Below, in pieces: positions 931 to 7,808 of a stretch of 64,000 nucleotides of DNA; the stretch's first letter is position 1; the number at the start of each line of letters is the position of its first letter. Source of the stretch: Puniceicoccaceae bacterium (lineage in GTDB: Bacteria; Verrucomicrobiota; Verrucomicrobiia; Opitutales; Oceanipulchritudinaceae); the NCBI GenBank assembly GCA_040830765.1, contig JBFOMH010000004.1:192001-256000 (forward strand). The letters are read 5' to 3'. The notes below the pieces were generated by a model, which did no database searches, was not told the DNA's origin, and saw nothing but the letters and a program-made list of their open reading frames with translations. The position numbers and the translations under genes are program-made.

Positions 931-2392
931 ATTTTTGGAGGTTTTCGAAAACTTGGCGCACAGCCGTTTTGTAGGACAGTTCCTGGCCTGTCTTTTGCCG
1001 ATGATGGTGCTGGGCATGGCGGGCGGCCCGGTCGATGAGCTTGTAGTTGCTCGGCTTGACCTTGGTCATGAGATTACTCTCAAAAAGCCTCATTCGGCCC
1101 ATCACAAGCGTGCTCTGGAGGTTGAGACAGGTCTTGAGATAGAGGTGTTTCAGGAGGAGGGGCGTATTTTCCAGCCCCAGATCATGGCTGTGCCCGGCAA
1201 ACTCGAGAATACCCGAGTGGCCATGGACAAGGTAGGGATATTGTTTTTTGCCCGGGTGCCGCCGGTCGCGCCATTCCGGTGCCTCGGCGGATATGTCATA
1301 ACCCAGAAGTCGCTCCCGGGAGGCCACTCCATTCAAAGTGGACCATTCCAGAGTTCGGGGTTGACGATGAAGGAGCTGCTCCCAAGCCGCTTCACTATTT
1401 CTCGCCTCCGGGAGGGAGAGGTAACAAAGGCTTCCCGGATCATCCGGAAGGTTCCGGTTTTCAAACGGGGCCAGTGAAAAGGTTGGTGAGCGCTCCGTGG
1501 TATCGGTGAGGACGGTGACCCCGTAACGGTCGGTCTGGTAGAGGAGCAGGTCTCCTTTTTCATAGATATTGGCCTCCGCCTCAATGAACGGGGCCAGCCA
1601 GCCGGGATCGTGGGCGTGAATCATGCCCGCAAAAGACCGGATCAGCGCCAGTGCGTCTCCCTGTCCCAAAGCTTCGCTGAGGGCGGCTCCGGCCACGAGC
1701 ATTTGGATCGTGGTCGCCTGGAGGCGGGTGCTACCCGCCAGCGCCATGGGACCGGTGTTGAGGAAAAAACTCCGGACGGAAGGGTGCTCCAGGACAGCCC
1801 GGGAACGGTCGGTCAGGCGGCACAGCAGATCCGGCGGATTGCAAAAGAAAAACCATGGCTGGCGACTTGCTACCTCGGCCGCCTTGAGGCAGGCCCCGAT
1901 GACCCAGGGTGTCTCGCCTCCCTCGGTAATTGCCAGCAGCAGGTCCCCGGGGCCAAAACCGTTCTCCATGAGCTGTCGCTCGCCGTACTCGGGATAGTCC
2001 TCAAAAGCCTCGATGGACTTTATCAGCGCGCCATCCCCACCAGCCATGAAACTGACGATTCGGTCGTCGTCTCCCTTGGAGAGCCATTCCTCCCGGGCTA
2101 GGGTCTCCAGGGAAAGGGCCAGACGGCCGGTGGCGCCACAGCCGGCAATGAAAAACCGGCCTCCACCTTCCAATGTTTCCCTCAGGGAGTTTACCAGCTC
2201 CGGAAGAGGATCCATGTATTCCTCAAGCTGGGTCATCGCCTGCCGGTCGACCCGATGGAAGGCTTCAATGGCCTCCAGGAGGTTGTTTTGCGCCAGCTCG
2301 GCAAGTCCGACAGTTTCCGGGTGGGGCTGTTCCGTAACCAACTCACCCAGGCGGAACTGGTCGCACACGTTGAGGAAATCCTCAGGATTCAT
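929..2392 (-). CDS. SIS-domain protein, MurQ / glucokinase-regulatory-protein-like
   Basis: LVTEQPHP, GCGATGRL, AGSTRLQAT and SNYKLIDRA motifs resemble MurQ/GKRP; longer than typical MurQ; start set at ATG of MNPEDF. Confidence 0.75.
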   Translation of the reverse strand: MNPEDFLNVCDQFRLGELVTEQPHPETVGLAELAQNNLLEAIEAFHRVDRQAMTQLEEYMDPLPELVNSLRETLEGGGRFFIAGCGATGRLALSLETLAREEWLSKGDDDRIVSFMAGGDGALIKSIEAFEDYPEYGERQLMENGFGPGDLLLAITEGGETPWVIGACLKAAEVASRQPWFFFCNPPDLLCRLTDRSRAVLEHPSVRSFFLNTGPMALAGSTRLQATTIQMLVAGAALSEALGQGDALALIRSFAGMIHAHDPGWLAPFIEAEANIYEKGDLLLYQTDRYGVTVLTDTTERSPTFSLAPFENRNLPDDPGSLCYLSLPEARNSEAAWEQLLHRQPRTLEWSTLNGVASRERLLGYDISAEAPEWRDRRHPGKKQYPYLVHGHSGILEFAGHSHDLGLENTPLLLKHLYLKTCLNLQSTLVMGRMRLFESNLMTKVKPSNYKLIDRAARHAQHHHRQKTGQELSYKTAVRQVFENLQK

Positions 2393-2494
2393 TGCCCGAT
2401 TGTGGAAATTCACCGCTCAATCGTCGAGGAATTCCGCAAGCTACCGTTCAGCAATGGAATTGACCTCGCGTTAGAACAGACGACCTTGGAGGGG

Positions 2495-3295
2495 ATGATC
2501 CTGATAGTCACAGCCCTGATGGTAGAGGCCCGGCCGATCCGGGACCATCTTGGACTGTCTGCACTGGGCAGTGAGCCCTTTCCGGTCTTCTGCGGGGAGC
2601 AGGCCACTCTTGTGGTCAGTGGAACCGGCTCGCTCAAGTCCAGTGCGGCCACCGCCTGGGCGATGGCCCGCTTCCCGGACATCCGGGCCGCCGTGAATGT
2701 GGGCTTTGCCGGGGCGCCATTAGCGATCTCCCCGCTCTATCGCTGGCACCTCATTCATTCTGTCCGCGACCAATCCAGTGGCCGGCTCTATATCCCCGAC
2801 ATTCTTGTCCAGCATGGATTCCCGGAAGCAAACCTGTTGACCTGTGGACAGGCGGTGCGGGATGAGAGCGGCTTGAATGGGCTGGTGGACATGGAAGGAA
2901 GTGGATTTTACGAGGCTGCCCGTCAGTTTCTTTCTCCCGACCGCATCGCATTGCTGAAGTGGGTTTCCGATCACCTCGGGGGGAAACTGGACATGGACGC
3001 TCTTGATCAGCCTTACCGGGAGGCAATGGGACCGTTGGCGGAATTCCTCCACAATTGGGCCCCGCTGGAGAAGGCAAGAGAATCTGAATCCAGTCCGGCA
3101 ATCCTCGAGACGGTTAAAACGCGGCTGCGCCTGAGCCAGACCCAGGAAAAGTTCCTTGATAAATGGGTTCGTGGATACCTTTCCCGGGGAGGCGAGGAAA
3201 GTCGCTTAATGGAGGTCCTGCCGGAAAAAGCGCTCACCGCGAAACGCGAGAATAACCGGTACTTCGAAATTTTGAAAGATGTACTCAAAGGCTAA
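2495..3295 (+). CDS. Nucleoside phosphorylase / MTA-SAH nucleosidase-like protein
   Basis: ALMVEA, SGTG, NVGFAG, VDMEGSGF, KWVSD motifs of the PNP/UDP fold; GGAGGG RBS just before ATG 2495. Confidence 0.8.
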   Translation: MILIVTALMVEARPIRDHLGLSALGSEPFPVFCGEQATLVVSGTGSLKSSAATAWAMARFPDIRAAVNVGFAGAPLAISPLYRWHLIHSVRDQSSGRLYIPDILVQHGFPEANLLTCGQAVRDESGLNGLVDMEGSGFYEAARQFLSPDRIALLKWVSDHLGGKLDMDALDQPYREAMGPLAEFLHNWAPLEKARESESSPAILETVKTRLRLSQTQEKFLDKWVRGYLSRGGEESRLMEVLPEKALTAKRENNRYFEILKDVLKG

Positions 3296-4292
3296 AACCT
3301 TTTCCCACGTCTATGTGGAAGACGGCCTTCAGGGACATCCGCGCGCCGGGGCCATCCTGGCCCGGTTTCCTTCCGCGGAAGTTGTGCCCGTGGATGATTA
3401 CCAGAATGTCTTTGGGCGGGGGCGTCAGGACTTCTGGAAGCAAAAGGCCAGCCCAAAGCTGATCCTGGCCCGCAAAAAGGATAATTTCCTTTATCGCGGA
3501 AATCCCTTCCTGCAGGCCAACCTGTCACCGAATTTCAGCTACAATGCAATGGTCCTGAATTGTCCCTACGACTGCCATTACTGTTATTTGCAGGGACTCT
3601 ACAACGGGGCTAATATCGTCGCCTTTGTTAACCTGGAAGACTTCTTTACAGCCGCCGCCACGGCCTGCGAACAGCGCCCGGCCCCGGACGAGCCGATGCC
3701 GCTGGCCATTTCCTACGATACCGATTTGCTGGCCCTCGAAGGACTGCTGGGATTCGCCGGGGAATGGGTTGAATGGGTGCGGCACCAGCCGGACATCCTG
3801 ATTGAGATCCGGACCAAGAGTGCCCCAGGGAGTTTTCTGCGCTCAGTTGCGCCAACGCCGCCAGCCCGGTTGGCATGGACCCTTTCACCGGACAGCATCG
3901 CCCGTCGCTACGAATCCGGGGCCCCCTCCCTGAAGTTGCGGTTGAAAGCAATGAATGACGCCGCTGCCCTCGGCTGGAGGATGACCCTGTGCATCGATCC
4001 AATCCTCAATTTACCCAATGCGGTCGATATCTATCGTGATTTCGTCAAGCAACTGGCCGAGGAAGCCCCCTGGCACGCCATTGAGCGAGTTGAGCTGGGT
4101 GTGTTTCGCGTCAGTTCCGCCTATTTCAAGCGGATGCTCAGCCGACCCGGAACGGACCTCTTGCATTATCCCTATGAGCATGCTAGCAAGGTCGTTTCTT
4201 ATAATAAGAAAGAGCGGGAGGACCTGGTGGATGCTGTACAGTCCGGGCTCCTGGCAACAATTTCCAAGGAAAAGATATTTATATGGACATAG
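3279..4292 (+). CDS. Spore photoproduct lyase (SPL)-family radical SAM protein
   Basis: NCPYDCHYCYLQG CxxxCxxC motif, EIRTKS, AWTLSP and YESGAPSL motifs typical of SplB-like proteins. Confidence 0.88.
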   Translation: MYSKAKTFSHVYVEDGLQGHPRAGAILARFPSAEVVPVDDYQNVFGRGRQDFWKQKASPKLILARKKDNFLYRGNPFLQANLSPNFSYNAMVLNCPYDCHYCYLQGLYNGANIVAFVNLEDFFTAAATACEQRPAPDEPMPLAISYDTDLLALEGLLGFAGEWVEWVRHQPDILIEIRTKSAPGSFLRSVAPTPPARLAWTLSPDSIARRYESGAPSLKLRLKAMNDAAALGWRMTLCIDPILNLPNAVDIYRDFVKQLAEEAPWHAIERVELGVFRVSSAYFKRMLSRPGTDLLHYPYEHASKVVSYNKKEREDLVDAVQSGLLATISKEKIFIWT

Positions 4293-5548
4293 CGATCGTG
4301 ACCGGCGCCTCAAGCTCGCTTGGGCTGGCCATTTCAAGACGATTGATTCAACTCGGATTCAGGGTTTACGGCCTTGGCGGTGACTACAAGGATTGCCCCT
4401 TGAACAACGTCAATTTCCGTCCCATGGCCTGTGATCTGGGCGATCCCGCTGCCGTTGAAACCGCCTGCCGCAAGATTGTTGAGGCGGAAAAGGGGGTATT
4501 TCTGGTCGTTAACAACGCCAAATATTTCGGGCAGAACCTCTTCATGGAGATGAGCACTCCGGAGATTGAGCGCATCCTGCGCATCAACCTCCTTTGCCCC
4601 CTGGTGATTGTCCGGACGCTCGCGGAAAGCCTTAAGGAGCTCCAGGGATACATCATCCAGCTGGGAACCCCTTATGCCGAGACCAGCCGTGGCGGCGCCG
4701 CTGGAGCGGCAGCTTCCGGTGGCCTCAAGTGGATGGGGGACTTGCTCTTTCACGAGCTGCGCCAGCACGGTGTGAAAGTGTGCCACCTTTCCCCTGAACC
4801 CAACCGGGGACGCGATGTTCCGCGCAAGGGGCGTCCCGGTGCCCGGCCGGAAGCGGTCATCGATCCCGAGGCTGTTGCCCAGGCGGTTGAGCAGATCCTG
4901 CAAAGCCCGTTTGGGAATGTTGTCACGGAGATGATTTTACGGCCCCTTCGGGTTGATGAGCCGGACCATGATCCCGTTCGGGAAATTCCCTATCCGGATC
5001 CAAAGCCAATCCCCTACACCGTTCCGCGGGAGTTCATTGAGGCCGAGGAACAGTTGGAAGAGGAAGAGTACCAGAAGGAGCAGCAGAAGAAACGGAAACG
5101 CCGCCAGGCCAAGAAGAAAGCTGCCAAACCGGCCAAGTCCTCTGCGCCAAAGGACAAGCCAGCGAAACAGGCCGATGAGCCCAAGGCCACCGAGGAAGCG
5201 CCCAAGTCAAGGCGCCGGGGCGGACGCAAGCCAAGGCCGCCCAAGGTTGAGGTCGGCTTTATGGATTCCAAGCAGCAGAAGGGTGACGATACTCCGCCAG
5301 CCGATAAGGCTGAAAAAGACAAGCCCGCCCGCAAATCCACTCGCAAGAAGGGTAAGTCCCCTGCCCGCAAATCAGCCAGGAAACAGGCCACGAAGGGTTC
5401 AGTGAAGGAGGATTCCAGCCAACCAGCCAGGAAGACTGCTCGCAAGGCGGTTAAAAAGGCGGCCAGGAAGTCGACAAAAAAAGCTGCCCGCAAACGACCA
5501 GCCAAAAAAGTTGCCCGAAAGGGTGAAAAAGGAAAAGAAACTGCTTAA
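4283..5548 (+). CDS. Degenerate SDR-fold protein fused to Lys/Arg/Ala-rich histone-H1-like tail
   Basis: N-term IVTGASSSLG, CDL, VVNNAK, ELRQHGVKV show the SDR scaffold; C-term has repeated KKAARK-like units. Confidence 0.82.
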   Translation: MDIAIVTGASSSLGLAISRRLIQLGFRVYGLGGDYKDCPLNNVNFRPMACDLGDPAAVETACRKIVEAEKGVFLVVNNAKYFGQNLFMEMSTPEIERILRINLLCPLVIVRTLAESLKELQGYIIQLGTPYAETSRGGAAGAAASGGLKWMGDLLFHELRQHGVKVCHLSPEPNRGRDVPRKGRPGARPEAVIDPEAVAQAVEQILQSPFGNVVTEMILRPLRVDEPDHDPVREIPYPDPKPIPYTVPREFIEAEEQLEEEEYQKEQQKKRKRRQAKKKAAKPAKSSAPKDKPAKQADEPKATEEAPKSRRRGGRKPRPPKVEVGFMDSKQQKGDDTPPADKAEKDKPARKSTRKKGKSPARKSARKQATKGSVKEDSSQPARKTARKAVKKAARKSTKKAARKRPAKKVARKGEKGKETA

Positions 5549-5557
5549 ATTCGAGTT

Positions 5558-5935
5558 ATGCTACTAAACCTCCTACCGCAACGACTAGCCGTTATTCATT
5601 TCGAGCCGGATGCCAAAATCCCCGACTGGAGCATGAAAGCCGAGTTTTTCTCCATTACCCGGACGCCGGATGAGGTATCCATATTTTGTGACAGCGCCGT
5701 CATGCCGGATCATCCCGACAAGATTGACGGGTGGAGGGCCTTCCGGGTTGCCGGCCAGCTGGAGCTGAGCCTGACCGGAGTGATATCCACCTTGGCTGTG
5801 CCCCTTGCGGCCAAGCAGATACCGGTGTTTTCCATCTCGACTCATGACACGGATTACATGCTGGTCCGGGAAGACCAACTGGAGGATGCCATCGACGTGC
5901 TGAGGCGGGCCGGCCACAGCTTCAACATGGCCTGA
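5558..5935 (+). CDS. ACT-domain protein (ACT_7/CASTOR-like)
   Basis: FFSITRTPDEVSI, GWRAFRVAG, IPVFSISTHDTDYMLV. Confidence 0.85.
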   Translation: MLLNLLPQRLAVIHFEPDAKIPDWSMKAEFFSITRTPDEVSIFCDSAVMPDHPDKIDGWRAFRVAGQLELSLTGVISTLAVPLAAKQIPVFSISTHDTDYMLVREDQLEDAIDVLRRAGHSFNMA

Positions 5936-6016
5936 GGGGACGAAAATCAGTTGAAATTCCCCAAAATTTATTGATGGTATGGTCGCTTTTTAAGTGACGA
6001 AATGCCCGTTTGAACA

Positions 6017-6643
6017 ATGAGCGAGAAAGAAGACAAGACACCTGATATTTTAGAGGACGCACCTGAGGCCGAGCCGGTTTCTGAGGCTGTCTCCGAATCG
6101 GCAGAGTCTGTGACGAAGGATGCGGCGACCACCGAGATGCCATCCATTTCAGCGGAGGAGCTCAGTGGCCTTCTGCAGAAACTGGAGGAAGCCACCGGTG
6201 AGATTAACACCCAGAAGGAGCGCTACCTGCGCACGGTGGCGGACCTCGAGAATTACCGCAAGCGGGCGGTCCGCGAGAAGGAAGAAGCCCGTAAACAAGC
6301 GGCCTGTAGTCTTCTGGAAGATCTCCTGCCGATCCTCGACCACTTCCAGTTGGGTCTGAAGTCGGCTGAAGAGCACGAGGGCGGAAAGGCCTTCGCGGAG
6401 GGTTTCCGGATGATTCTCAAGCAGATGGAAGCGGCCCTGAAGCAAAACGGGCTGGAGGAGATAAACCCGGAAGGCGAAGCCTTTGACCCGAATTTTCATG
6501 AATCCATCGCCCACCTTCCCCATGAGTCGATAGGGGATGGGCACATTATCGAGGTGCACCGGGTCGGGTACCGCCTCAATGAGCGCCTCCTGCGGCCGGC
6601 TCAGGTTGTTGTTTCCAGTGGTGCAACAGAGGAGGATGCCTGA
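6017..6643 (+). CDS. grpE: Nucleotide exchange factor GrpE
   Basis: ADLENYRKR, LLPILD, FDPNFHE, GYRLNERLLRPAQVVV. Confidence 0.97.
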   Translation: MSEKEDKTPDILEDAPEAEPVSEAVSESAESVTKDAATTEMPSISAEELSGLLQKLEEATGEINTQKERYLRTVADLENYRKRAVREKEEARKQAACSLLEDLLPILDHFQLGLKSAEEHEGGKAFAEGFRMILKQMEAALKQNGLEEINPEGEAFDPNFHESIAHLPHESIGDGHIIEVHRVGYRLNERLLRPAQVVVSSGATEEDA

Positions 6644-6659
6644 ACCGGCATCCGGTTGA

Positions 6660-7808
6660 ATGATGGCTAAAGAGGATTATTACGAATTGCTGGGCGTCGG
6701 GCGCGATGCTTCCGCGGAGGAAATAAAGAAGGCCTACCGCAAGAAGGCCGTGCAGTACCACCCGGACAAGCACAAGGGCGACAAGGCCATGGAGGAGAAG
6801 TTTAAGGAAGTCTCCGAGGCTTATGAGGTGCTCAAGGATGCTGACAAGAAGGCTGCCTACGACCGTTACGGGCATGCCGCCTTTGAGCAGGGCGGTGCCG
6901 GGATGAGGGGCGCCGGGGGAGGCTTCCACGATCCCTTTGATATTTTTCGTGAAGTCTTTGGCGGAAGTGCCTTTGATGATTTCTTTGGTGGTGGCGGAGG
7001 CTCCCGTGGTGGCGGCAGTGCTTCCCAGTCCGGCTCGGACCTTCGTTACGATATCGAAATTTCGCTGGTCGAAGCCTTCAAGGGAGTGGAAAAGGAAATT
7101 TCCTATCGCACCGCTGGGTCCTGTGACAGTTGCAACGGCTCAGGGGCCGAGCCCGGCTCAAAAGTAGTCACCTGCTCCACTTGTGGTGGCGCTGGCCGGG
7201 TGATCAGCTCGCGGGGCTTCTTCCAGGTCCAGCAGGTATGTCCAAACTGTAATGGCGCCGGACGCATGCCGGAGTCGCGCTGTCGCAATTGCGGGGGAGA
7301 AGGCCGCATCAACAAGAACAAGACGGTCAAGATCAAGGTCCCGGCGGGCATTTCCACCGGCCAAAAGCTGCGTTCCGCGGGCAACGGCGAGGCCGGGGTC
7401 ATGGGTGGGCCGGCAGGTGACCTCTATGTCGTGGTCCATGTGAAGGACCACCCGATTTTTGAGCGCCAGGGCGACGACCTCTATTGTGACGTGCCGGTTA
7501 AGTTCACACTCGCGGCTCTCGGGGGGACGATTGAGGTACCGACCCTCTCCAACAGCAGTGGTTTTGTTTCCTTGAAAATCCCCGCCGGTACCCAGGACGG
7601 GACGGTCTTCAAGCTGCGGGATCGTGGAATGCCGCATCTCCGCACCTCGACCAAGGGCAACCAGTTTGTCCGTGTCCACATCGAGGTCCCGAAAAAACTG
7701 AGTGCCGAGCAACGGGAGCTGCTGGAAAAGTTTGCCAAAGCCTGTGGCGATACCGACCATCCGGTTGAGGAAAGTTTCTGGGAAAAGGCCAAGAAGATTT
7801 TTGATTAG
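6660..7808 (+). CDS. dnaJ: Chaperone DnaJ
   Basis: J-domain with HPD, G/F-rich linker, four CxxCxGxG zinc-finger repeats. Confidence 0.98.

Follow-up and report, generated by a model that had tools for sequence, protein, structure and literature searches.

Among radical S-adenosylmethionine (SAM) enzymes, MqnE and HpnH belong to subgroups other than that of the spore photoproduct lyase (SPL), and the adenine-removing role for MqnE is filled by MqnB. The accessible text of PMC13459092 describes two C-adenosylating radical SAM systems, those of MqnE and HpnH, the latter with a dedicated partner, HpnG, of the purine nucleoside phosphorylase (PNP) family. A further known pair consists of the nucleoside hydrolase QueK and the radical SAM queuine lyase QueL (PMC11130926 and PMC12632869, as far as the available portions of these papers go). 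The SPL fold itself is represented by SplB (G. thermodenitrificans, PDB 4FHC-4FHG; TIGR04070), for which the available part of PMC3467042 gives Cys140 as the hydrogen donor, Arg193 and Glu268 as contacts to the lesion bases, and hydrogen abstraction as the chemistry. Here we analyzed four co-directional genes in a 64,000-nt stretch of DNA (hereafter the window) from a Puniceicoccaceae bacterium (contig JBFOMH010000004.1; genome G000, 3.99 Mb, 96.9% complete), which encode a nucleosidase (NUC), an SPL-like radical SAM enzyme, a short-chain dehydrogenase/reductase (SDR) derivative with a charged tail (pseudo-SDR) and a small ACT-domain protein. The four genes are two separate units, NUC-SPL and pseudo-SDR-ACT. 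The first belongs to an ancient and widespread NUC-SPL-SDR cassette, which is an undescribed variant of the theme in which a radical SAM enzyme is joined to a PNP-family nucleosidase, and the novelty of the window itself is an exapted, tail-bearing pseudo-SDR with an ACT partner. A full-text literature search found no publication on the nucleosidase/radical SAM/SDR triad, in line with an initial annotation of the locus that had called the system uncharacterized. The genes and gene parts are as follows.

2495..3295, + strand: NUC, an MTAN/futalosine-hydrolase-like nucleosidase of 266 aa, with the catalytic domain at about residues 1-166 and a C-terminal helical domain at about 167-265
3279..4292, + strand: SPL-fold radical SAM enzyme of 337 aa, with CX3CX2C at residues 95-102 (nt 3561-3584)
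4283..4987, + strand: pseudo-SDR core, residues 1-235, of cassette-SDR descent, catalytic residues gone
4988..5548, + strand: low-complexity tail of the pseudo-SDR, residues 236-421
5558..5935, + strand: ACT_7/A9CJY8-like small protein of 125 aa, assigned by Pfam

The nucleosidase and SPL-like genes form a tightly coupled unit

A scan with one genome per species returned 596 pattern matches, 584 of which encode a relative, and the best 80 loci were studied. Using the window proteins as BLAST queries, we detected the SPL-like gene in 80/80 loci, NUC in 74/80 and the SDR in 59/80; a profile search of the loci that were negative for NUC or SDR by BLAST found neither gene. Adjacency could be counted in 76 of the 80 loci, those with enough flanking DNA, and in 73 of them NUC and the SPL-like gene are same-strand neighbors, while an SDR lies 3' of NUC-SPL in 53. 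Where open reading frames (ORFs) had been called, the NUC and SPL genes overlap or lie at most 3 nt apart in 12 of 13 loci. Judged by the titles of the records, the cassette occurs in at least nine phyla (Verrucomicrobiota, Spirochaetota, Bacillota, Gemmatimonadota, Latescibacterota, Bacteroidota, Fusobacteriota, Pseudomonadota and Vulcanimicrobiota), and its named holders include Leptospira and, within the Bacillota, Lachnoclostridium, Anaerocolumna, Caloramator and Thermobrachium.

The two proteins are also encountered as a single polypeptide. Homologs longer than the window proteins number 312 (591-2000 aa), and all 120 among the matches listed are NUC-SPL fusions in gene order with NUC complete, including its C-terminal domain; by our own profiles, 117 of the 120 contain NUC and SPL, and the other three have NUC split into two hits. 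Pfam PF01048 was recognized in just 4 of the 11 fusions scanned. Co-occurrence points the same way: in a survey of the window genome and 40 relatives (41 genomes), an SPL-like gene of the window family is present in 14, in addition to a distant, 24%-identical one in G028, and full-length NUC is found in exactly the same 14 genomes (that of G030 being cut by a contig end). Taken together, the adjacency (73/76), the fusions and the perfect co-occurrence (14/14) show that NUC and the SPL-like enzyme are a tightly coupled unit, and the coupling of the two, as originally proposed for this locus, is thereby supported.

The genes around the cassette differ between lineages. Clustering of the flanking ORFs de novo yielded no further neighbor family in more than 22 of the 80 loci, and clusters 3, 4, 5, 7 and 8, whose representatives lie inside the SPL or SDR coordinates, are read as shadow ORFs. 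A YafV-like CN_hydrolase/amidase directly follows the SDR in eight Leptospira loci (L040, L049, L053, L056, L060, L073, L083 and L090), aguA (agmatine deiminase) and aguB (N-carbamoylputrescine amidase) lie divergently upstream in the Lachnospiraceae loci L061, L067, L093 and L107, and a CN_hydrolase gene is found upstream in L057 and L101. Moreover, 12 Latescibacterota/Gemmatimonadota-type loci (e.g. L047) have a MOSC-domain gene after the SDR and a 207-aa protein of no known type before NUC, and MiaB is a neighbor in one Opitutales cassette locus. These lineage-specific neighbors yield no common theme. A riboswitch search (Rfam) of 12 Bacillota loci was negative, the one T-box over the gathering score (L088) lying on the strand opposite to the cassette, and a protein atlas search returned just unnamed or SPL-named clusters.

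In the cassettes of other phyla the SDR has intact TGxxxGIG, NNAG, Ser and Tyr-x3-Lys motifs, and among solved structures it is closest to aldehyde/alcohol enzymes of the NADP type, clavaldehyde dehydrogenase and farnesol dehydrogenase.

Two deviations from the common arrangement were encountered. In the Fusobacteriaceae locus L085, a SUFU-domain gene (5316-5972) stands between NUC and the SPL-like gene, which is the sole broken adjacency among the 13 ORF-called loci. In L072, L102 and L104 (Leptospiraceae/Spirochaetota), the SPL-like gene (38-39% identity) is preceded by 5.7-6 kb of DNA in which no NUC was found by BLAST or profile; these loci may represent a paralogous subgroup or have the partner encoded elsewhere.

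The pseudo-SDR and ACT genes form a second unit

Across the same 41 genomes, the last two genes of the window follow a distribution of their own. Orthologs of the pseudo-SDR (E up to 5e-49, long ORFs) were detected in 26 genomes, with an additional weak one in G025. Half of these 26 genomes (13) also carry NUC and SPL, and in the other 13 neither was found, 10 of the latter being at least 90% complete; conversely, NUC and SPL are present in G036, in which no pseudo-SDR was found. ACT orthologs occur in 15 of the 41 genomes, all of them pseudo-SDR holders, and they adjoin the pseudo-SDR gene in 14 of the 15 and occur in 6 of the 15 with neither NUC nor SPL found. In the congeners G002, G005 and G007 (95-100% complete), in which no SPL-like gene and no NUC were found, the order pseudo-SDR, ACT, grpE, dnaJ is kept, and the SIS-domain gene that is divergent to NUC in the window abuts the pseudo-SDR in G005 (187-nt gap) and G007 (74-nt gap). 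The sole possible remnant of an SPL 3' end is a very weak tblastn match in G005 (E 0.088).

Both units are also encountered in one genome, apart from each other. At locus L026 (contig C147), G015 has a canonical cassette whose SDR retains Tyr-x3-Lys, and elsewhere it has a separate pseudo-SDR-ACT pair (L129, C110); the SPL of L026 is only 42% identical to that of the window, which suggests that the cassette was re-acquired by transfer after loss.

The four genes are accordingly not a single module, since the last two are retained in genomes without the first two. The initial annotation had considered an integrated module for DNA compaction and repair, and this proposal is not supported, given the retention of the pseudo-SDR and ACT genes outside NUC/SPL contexts in 13 and 6 genomes, respectively. 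The case also serves as a caution that operon neighbors need not form one module.

The assignment of the fourth gene product as an ACT-type protein proved correct. It matches the Pfam families ACT_7 (PF13840; 67.9 bits, cut-off 27) and A9CJY8-like_N (45.9 bits), and its profile finds as best solved relatives Atu0741 (PDB 1ZHV; 2e-30) and the arginine sensor CASTOR1 (1.6e-20), so that it is predicted to bind a small ligand. Both relatives share the ACT_7 fold with it; unlike them, the window protein is a single 125-aa protein with a conserved partner, the pseudo-SDR.

The nucleosidase

NUC falls under the thresholds of the established nucleosidase families, with weak matches to PNP_UDP_1 (PF01048; 20.2 bits, cut-off 25.1) and to futalosine hydrolase (TIGR03664; 27 bits), and it is not listed for the methylthioadenosine/S-adenosylhomocysteine (MTA/SAH) nucleosidase model TIGR01704 at E up to 0.01. 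Its family profile nevertheless retrieves the S. aureus MTAN structure 3bl6 (E 1.5e-11), and the invariant residues E11, M133-E134 and D159 align to the S. aureus motifs AMEEE, VEMEA and VSD; we take E11, E134 and D159 to be the counterparts of the catalytic Glu12, Glu174 and Asp197 of the E. coli enzyme. Structure comparison with an AF2 model (pLDDT 90.5) agrees with this assignment: the top Foldseek matches (probability 1.0) are the H. pylori futalosine hydrolase/MTAN and, at 23% identity, Chlamydia CT263, and a VIA structure comparison gives Z 23.3 and an rmsd of 2.2 over 189 residues (residues 1-192).

NUC thus has the fold of MtnN/Pfs and of Chlamydia CT263 and keeps their catalytic acid residues. 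It differs from MTAN in lacking about 25 residues in mid-domain by alignment, in scoring under the family cut-offs and in carrying, after residue 166, a family-specific helical domain of about 100 residues, for which no Pfam match was obtained. A nucleosidase with the MTAN catalytic set is expected to act on a 5'-substituted 5'-deoxyadenosine. The family is large: E thresholds of 1e-3, 1e-10 and 1e-30 give 7764, 3866 and 2320 representatives, respectively, of clusters at 50% identity. Within G000, the two other PNP_UDP_1 genes code for an AMP nucleosidase and a PNP of the PunA type, and neither MtnN nor MTAP was found with a score over its cut-off; NUC is the sole MTAN-like gene found in G000, G004 and G009.

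Two short NUC-like genes in relatives of the same order (G026:C4:35182-35694 and G028:C83:11774-12358) match the catalytic domain only (profile positions 1-175 and 5-185); they lack the C-terminal helical domain and resemble CT263-type nucleosidases in size.

The SPL-like radical SAM enzyme

The second gene product scores 46.7 bits against the SPL family PF20903 (cut-off 27), and it remains far under the cut-offs of the dedicated models TIGR04070 (spore photoproduct lyase; 46.2 bits, cut-off 400) and TIGR03886 (51.2 bits, cut-off 437.55). The radical SAM motif reads CPYDCHYC at residues 95-102, and its cysteines C95, C99 and C102, as well as the flanking Y101 and Y103, are invariant in the family. 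With G. thermodenitrificans SPL the family profile aligns over residues 91-276 (E 1e-21). The two enzymes therefore share PF20903, the radical SAM core and the sequence C-x3-C-H-Y-C-Y-L-Q with both flanking tyrosines.

In contrast to this shared core, the residues on which the lyase reaction depends are replaced. When the alignment was read with a 27-residue tag offset and with the residue roles given in the available part of PMC3467042, Cys140 of SPL aligned to Y146, Arg193 to A199 and Glu268 to G274, and all three substitutes are invariant in the window family. The profile alignment ends at SPL residue 270, short of residues Arg304/Tyr305 of the DNA-flipping beta-hairpin and of the phosphate contacts Arg273/Lys309, and the Clostridium-type Cys at position 76 falls outside the aligned region. 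Given a median pI of 8.1 and a median net charge of +2 for the SPL-like family, the charge is not a strong indication of DNA binding. Since the lesion-binding and hydrogen-donor residues of SPL are absent, repair of spore photoproduct (SP) is unlikely, and we conclude that the window enzyme is not an SP lyase; the invariant Tyr, Ala and Gly at these positions speak against the originally suggested repair of lesions. A further difference from SplB is that the window family is paired or fused with a nucleosidase. The LexA control described for splB (PMC3323433) concerns alpha- and beta-proteobacterial genes, which are outside the present comparison.

Descent and tail of the pseudo-SDR

The third gene product is recognized as an SDR by Pfam (adh_short over residues 3-171, 66.4 bits, cut-off 26.6). 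Its motifs read IIQLGTPY, GAAASGGLKW and NNAK, compared with IINISS, YGATKAGL and NNAG in the cassette SDRs, so that the catalytic Ser, Tyr and Lys are replaced by Gly/Thr, Ala and Gly, respectively; Gly also replaces the NADP-binding Arg, and the Rossmann motif TGxxxGxG reads TGASSSLG, with the middle Gly changed to Ser. The description of this protein as a pseudo-SDR with a basic tail therefore stands, the catalytic Ser/Tyr/Lys, the Gly of NNAG and the NADP Arg all being lost.

Phylogenetic analysis places this loss within the cassette lineage. In a maximum-likelihood tree, the cassette SDRs and pseudo-SDRs form one clade (support 100/99), apart from 15 other SDR paralogs of G000, and the pseudo-SDRs form a single clade (100/100; long stem of 0.86) nested among the canonical cassette SDRs, which therefore points to one loss of catalysis inside the cassette lineage. 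Within the genus, the catalytically dead core is nonetheless more conserved than the other two proteins, at 68-77% identity compared with 47-54% for NUC and 55-66% for SPL. Tail and loss of catalysis go together: all 16 distinct NNAK loci without Tyr/Lys in our motif table (21 rows, five of which are the same contigs fetched twice) bear C-terminal extensions of 82-290 aa with a net charge of +13 to +40, and all 46 Tyr-x3-Lys rows, nearly all from other phyla, have at most 39 aa after the core and no tail; three rows cut by contig ends were left unclassified. As an evolutionary event, these sequence comparisons show a cassette SDR that lost catalysis once in the Opitutales, gained a long, disordered tail and was paired with an ACT protein. 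Thus, of the triad with basic tail expected to recur in gene neighborhoods, the NUC-SPL(-SDR) part does recur and the tail is absent from the intact cassette SDRs; it is an Opitutales innovation lacking in 46/46 intact Tyr-x3-Lys cassette SDRs, which does not support its suggested part in a DNA module.

NmrA-type regulators are likewise SDR-derived pseudoenzymes, in which the catalytic Tyr is lost and the Rossmann fold is kept for a non-catalytic role. The pseudo-SDR departs from these regulators in that its changes extend to the NADP Arg and to part of the Gly motif and in that it has a charged tail of 186 residues and a CASTOR-like ACT partner.

The window tail is composed of 23% Lys, 14% Ala, 11% Pro and 10% Arg and has a net charge of +32. 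It begins with a Pro-rich linker, PYPDPKPIPYTVPRE, and an acidic patch (residues 236-275), followed by a Lys/Ala/Pro/Arg-rich segment at residues 276-421 (net +37). G016 has the same linker motif. The tails of other genera in the family measure 189-522 residues, share the linker motif and range in net charge from -23 to +36, some being Lys/Ala-rich at the end. A filter for Lys-rich ORFs across the 3.99 Mb of G000 was passed by just six ORFs. Three of the other five hold ParB, sigma-70 (RpoD-type) and DksA/TraR-type domains, and the remaining two are a contig-end fragment of pure Lys/Ala repeats and a 174-aa ORF without a named domain (the Lys/Ala-rich ORFs being G000:C20:52697-54907, C18:117815-118780, C15:1913-3103, C21:138404-138925 and C9:172629-172931). 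The chlamydial histone-like family HC2 (PF07382) reaches its 40-bit Pfam cut-off on the RpoD and DksA-like proteins of G000 and stays below it on the third of the four scanned; two orthologous tails match HC2 below the cut-off (30.7 and 17 bits). 'Histone-like' is consequently a fair description of the composition of the tail in the window genus, rather than a demonstrated function. The Lys/Ala-rich extension of the G000 RpoD sits N-terminally.

Interpretation of the two units

Our overall explanation, to which we assign a probability of roughly 50%, combines an adenosylation-type first unit with an exapted second unit. NUC and the SPL-fold radical SAM enzyme would act on the same SAM-derived 5'-deoxyadenosyl compound, since their pairing and frequent fusion indicate that the compound cleaved by NUC is either supplied by the radical SAM enzyme or passed on to it. 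The latter would add the 5'-deoxyadenosyl radical to a common small-molecule substrate, as MqnE and HpnH do, NUC would then remove adenine, as do MqnB and HpnG, and where the third gene is intact an NADP-type SDR would reduce (or oxidize) the released ribosyl group at C1. As to the second unit, the cassette SDR lost catalysis once in an ancestor of the Opitutales, gained a disordered tail and was paired with the CASTOR-like ACT protein, and it would have taken on a role without need for NUC or SPL. In the window genus, the Lys/Ala-rich tail would confer association with nucleic acid (the nucleoid), and the ACT partner would add a small-ligand input to the pseudo-SDR.

The part concerning the first unit, namely that a 5'-deoxyadenosyl adduct is formed and subsequently trimmed in the manner of MqnE/MqnB or HpnH/HpnG, is put forward with somewhat less than even confidence and by analogy. 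The cassette shares with these systems (HpnH/HpnG as far as covered by the accessible text of PMC13459092) a radical SAM enzyme joined to an adenine remover of the PNP/MTAN family, and a redox step at the ribose could plausibly follow; it differs in that its radical SAM partner has the SPL fold. In favor of adenosylation we counted the dedicated and fused partner, the extra domain of NUC and its futalosine-hydrolase-like fold. The replacement of the SPL-specific residues and the aldehyde/alcohol enzymes nearest to the intact SDR were also counted for this reading of the first unit. Several observations weigh against it. The documented chemistry of SPL is hydrogen abstraction, not adenosyl addition (PMC3467042, available part). 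No further conserved biosynthetic gene was found beside the cassette on clustering of 80 loci, 14 of them annotated. MqnA (PF02621), found in 4 of 14 control genomes, and squalene-hopene cyclase (PF13243) were both not found in G000 and four congeners; neither known adenosylation pathway is present in G000, and membership of the cassette in the futalosine or hopanoid pathway was therefore rejected. In addition, the SDR is absent from 23 of 76 loci and dead in the Opitutales, which fits a by-product role more easily, and the status of NUC as the sole MTAN-like protein of G000 fits a plain 5'-deoxyadenosine nucleosidase equally well.

These last points lead to the strongest competitor, by-product clearance, in which the SPL-like enzyme would abstract hydrogen from a small molecule or nucleic acid and release 5'-deoxyadenosine, NUC would hydrolyze this inhibitor and the SDR would convert the toxic 5-deoxyribose. 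Such a scheme draws on hydrogen abstraction as the chemistry documented for SPL in the available part of PMC3467042. It is also in keeping with the retained MTAN catalytic residues, with the absence of another MTAN-like gene among those found in G000, G004 and G009, and with an SDR that can be dispensed with. However, radical SAM families that abstract hydrogen do not usually come with a nucleosidase that is dedicated to them and frequently fused. Moreover, no NUC, MtnN or MTAP was found in G005 (100% complete), so that the genus must have another route of 5'-deoxyadenosine disposal, and the extra conserved C-terminal domain and the catalytic domain shorter than that of MTAN suggest a different 5' substituent. 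We therefore prefer the tentative adenosylation scheme, and the removal of by-product that the initial annotation had assigned to the nucleosidase is kept as a live, if rather doubtful, rival. Considerably less probable is the integrated module, in which the SPL-like enzyme would repair a DNA lesion, the tail compact or tether DNA, NUC clear 5'-deoxyadenosine and the ACT protein sense a ligand. The SPL fold with its shared CHYCYLQ motif, the strongly basic tail of the window and the similar tails on DNA-associated proteins of G000 are compatible with it; against it stand the invariant Tyr/Ala/Gly in place of Cys140/Arg193/Glu268, the median pI and net charge of the family given above, the tailless intact cassette SDRs and the persistence of pseudo-SDR and ACT without NUC and SPL.

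Two salvage schemes appear very improbable. In the first, as for QueK and QueL, the nucleosidase would release queuine or another modified base, which the radical SAM lyase would cut to a usable precursor. According to the available portions of PMC11130926 and PMC12632869, that known pair likewise joins a nucleosidase to a radical SAM lyase on a nucleoside-derived compound, and TGT is present without a real QueC in 5/5 congeners tested (G000, G002, G004, G005 and G009; TGT 481-499 bits, QueC only marginal at about 22 bits in unrelated longer ORFs), on account of which the window genus looks dependent on salvaged queuosine precursors. This dependence does not follow the cassette, as the cassette-free G002 and G005 also lack QueC and a bona fide QueC is present in 5/5 cassette-bearing genomes of other phyla, leaving no cross-phylum tie to queuosine auxotrophy. 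The nucleosidases also differ in family, NUC being MTAN-like and QueK an inosine/uridine hydrolase; no TGT or QueT-type gene was found in the 14 annotated loci and no riboswitch in the 12 Bacillota loci. Dataset S1 of PMC11130926, in its accessible part, gives QueL as 0 for Lachnoclostridium phytofermentans_A and Anaerocolumna aminovalerica, which would count against the scheme if these two species carry the cassette. The other scheme, equally improbable, is recycling of MTA or SAH, in which NUC would cleave either compound and the radical SAM enzyme would cut the C-S bond of the thio-ribose. The polyamine genes aguA/aguB upstream of the four Lachnospiraceae cassettes, the YafV-like amidase after the SDR in eight Leptospira loci and the CN_hydrolase upstream in L057 and L101 would suit it, but the three CN_hydrolases fall in different subfamilies. 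No spermidine synthase match was found in G000 and most congeners (within the genus only G006, at 23 bits), AhcY is present in 5/5 genomes tested and LuxS is absent where AhcY is present (G000), so that recycling of MTA or SAH would not be needed in G000. The polyamine/MTA idea was dropped as no SpeE was found, and the SAH idea as AhcY was found.

Regarding the second unit, association of the Lys/Ala-rich tail with nucleic acid (the nucleoid) is the most likely role in the window genus, as judged from composition, and the Lys/Ala-rich segments on the ParB, RpoD and DksA/TraR-type proteins of G000 were counted in its favor. Two observations speak against such a role. The tails are acidic or mixed in other genera, and the window tail (4973-5545) matched no Pfam family at E up to 0.1; it thus resembles chlamydial HC2 in its Lys/Ala-rich composition and differs from it in giving no HC2 match at that threshold.

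The wider claim that the cassette is a third widespread C-adenosylation system, and that its Opitutales reductase was recycled as a regulatory or nucleoid protein with a disordered tail and an ACT partner, is advanced as a speculative and on balance unlikely one. Were the C-adenosylation part true, a metabolite or lipid with a C5 polyol side chain, made by an SDR that opens and reduces the ribose, would be expected from Leptospira to gut Lachnospiraceae. Irrespective of the reaction, thousands of proteins labelled 'spore photoproduct lyase' or 'DNA photolyase' belong to this nucleosidase-coupled family, whose reaction is undescribed and whose holders include pathogenic Leptospira, gut Lachnospiraceae and marine Verrucomicrobia; the natural NUC-SPL fusions provide a ready single-polypeptide target for enzymology. 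The second unit offers a case of enzyme-to-pseudoenzyme exaptation, in which a cassette reductase lost its activity once, acquired a charged, disordered tail together with an ACT partner and survived the loss of the enzymes that it had formerly served.

Gene calls and flanking regions

The ORF list contains four + strand frames at 2255..3295, 3279..4292, 4283..5548 and 5558..5935, and it bears out the initially reported layout of four co-directional genes, with overlaps of 17 nt (3279/3295) and 10 nt (4283/4292) and a 9-nt gap (5548 to 5558). For the first gene we use the in-frame ATG at 2495, which gives the N-terminus MILIVTAL... common to all homologs and is immediately preceded by GGAGGGG; the longer reading from 2255 would run into the divergent upstream gene. 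The upstream features are as follows.

929-2413, - strand: MurQ-like SIS gene, divergent to NUC
2414..2494: gap separating NUC from the SIS gene, presumed to be a promoter region, spanned by RNA-library contig 2216-2621

Parts of all four genes are matched at 100% identity by contigs from two metatranscriptome libraries (a mollusc-associated sample series) and from a further run whose type is a guess. The DNA of the window also occurs in mollusc metagenome runs. One of the contigs, 4851-5623, crosses the SDR/ACT junction, and none bridges the NUC/SPL or the SPL/SDR junction; the contigs indicate presence in a library, which may contain DNA, rather than transcript structure. Promoter and terminator patterns in the window did not exceed the shuffled expectation, and no sigma-70-like site was scored at 2414..2494. 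An Rfam search at E up to 1 gave no match in the window region 1800-6700, and no PADLOC anti-phage defense model matched any of the four proteins at E up to 0.01.

Downstream of the ACT gene lie grpE, dnaJ, purN and prmA, and within the window genus the position upstream of grpE-dnaJ is always held by the pseudo-SDR and ACT genes. A search of G000 for HrcA (PF01628) was negative, and the 81 nt that separate the ACT gene from grpE (5936-6016) contain no visible CIRCE-like repeat. The idea of the pseudo-SDR as a substitute for HrcA in regulating grpE-dnaJ was not pressed, as the pseudo-SDR is not beside grpE in other genera. On the upstream side, the SIS protein is a 494-aa relative of MurNAc-6-P etherase and of glucokinase-regulator N-domains (119.7 bits, cut-off 168); it is far longer than the MurQ models, which measure about 300 aa, and the genus conserves its synteny.

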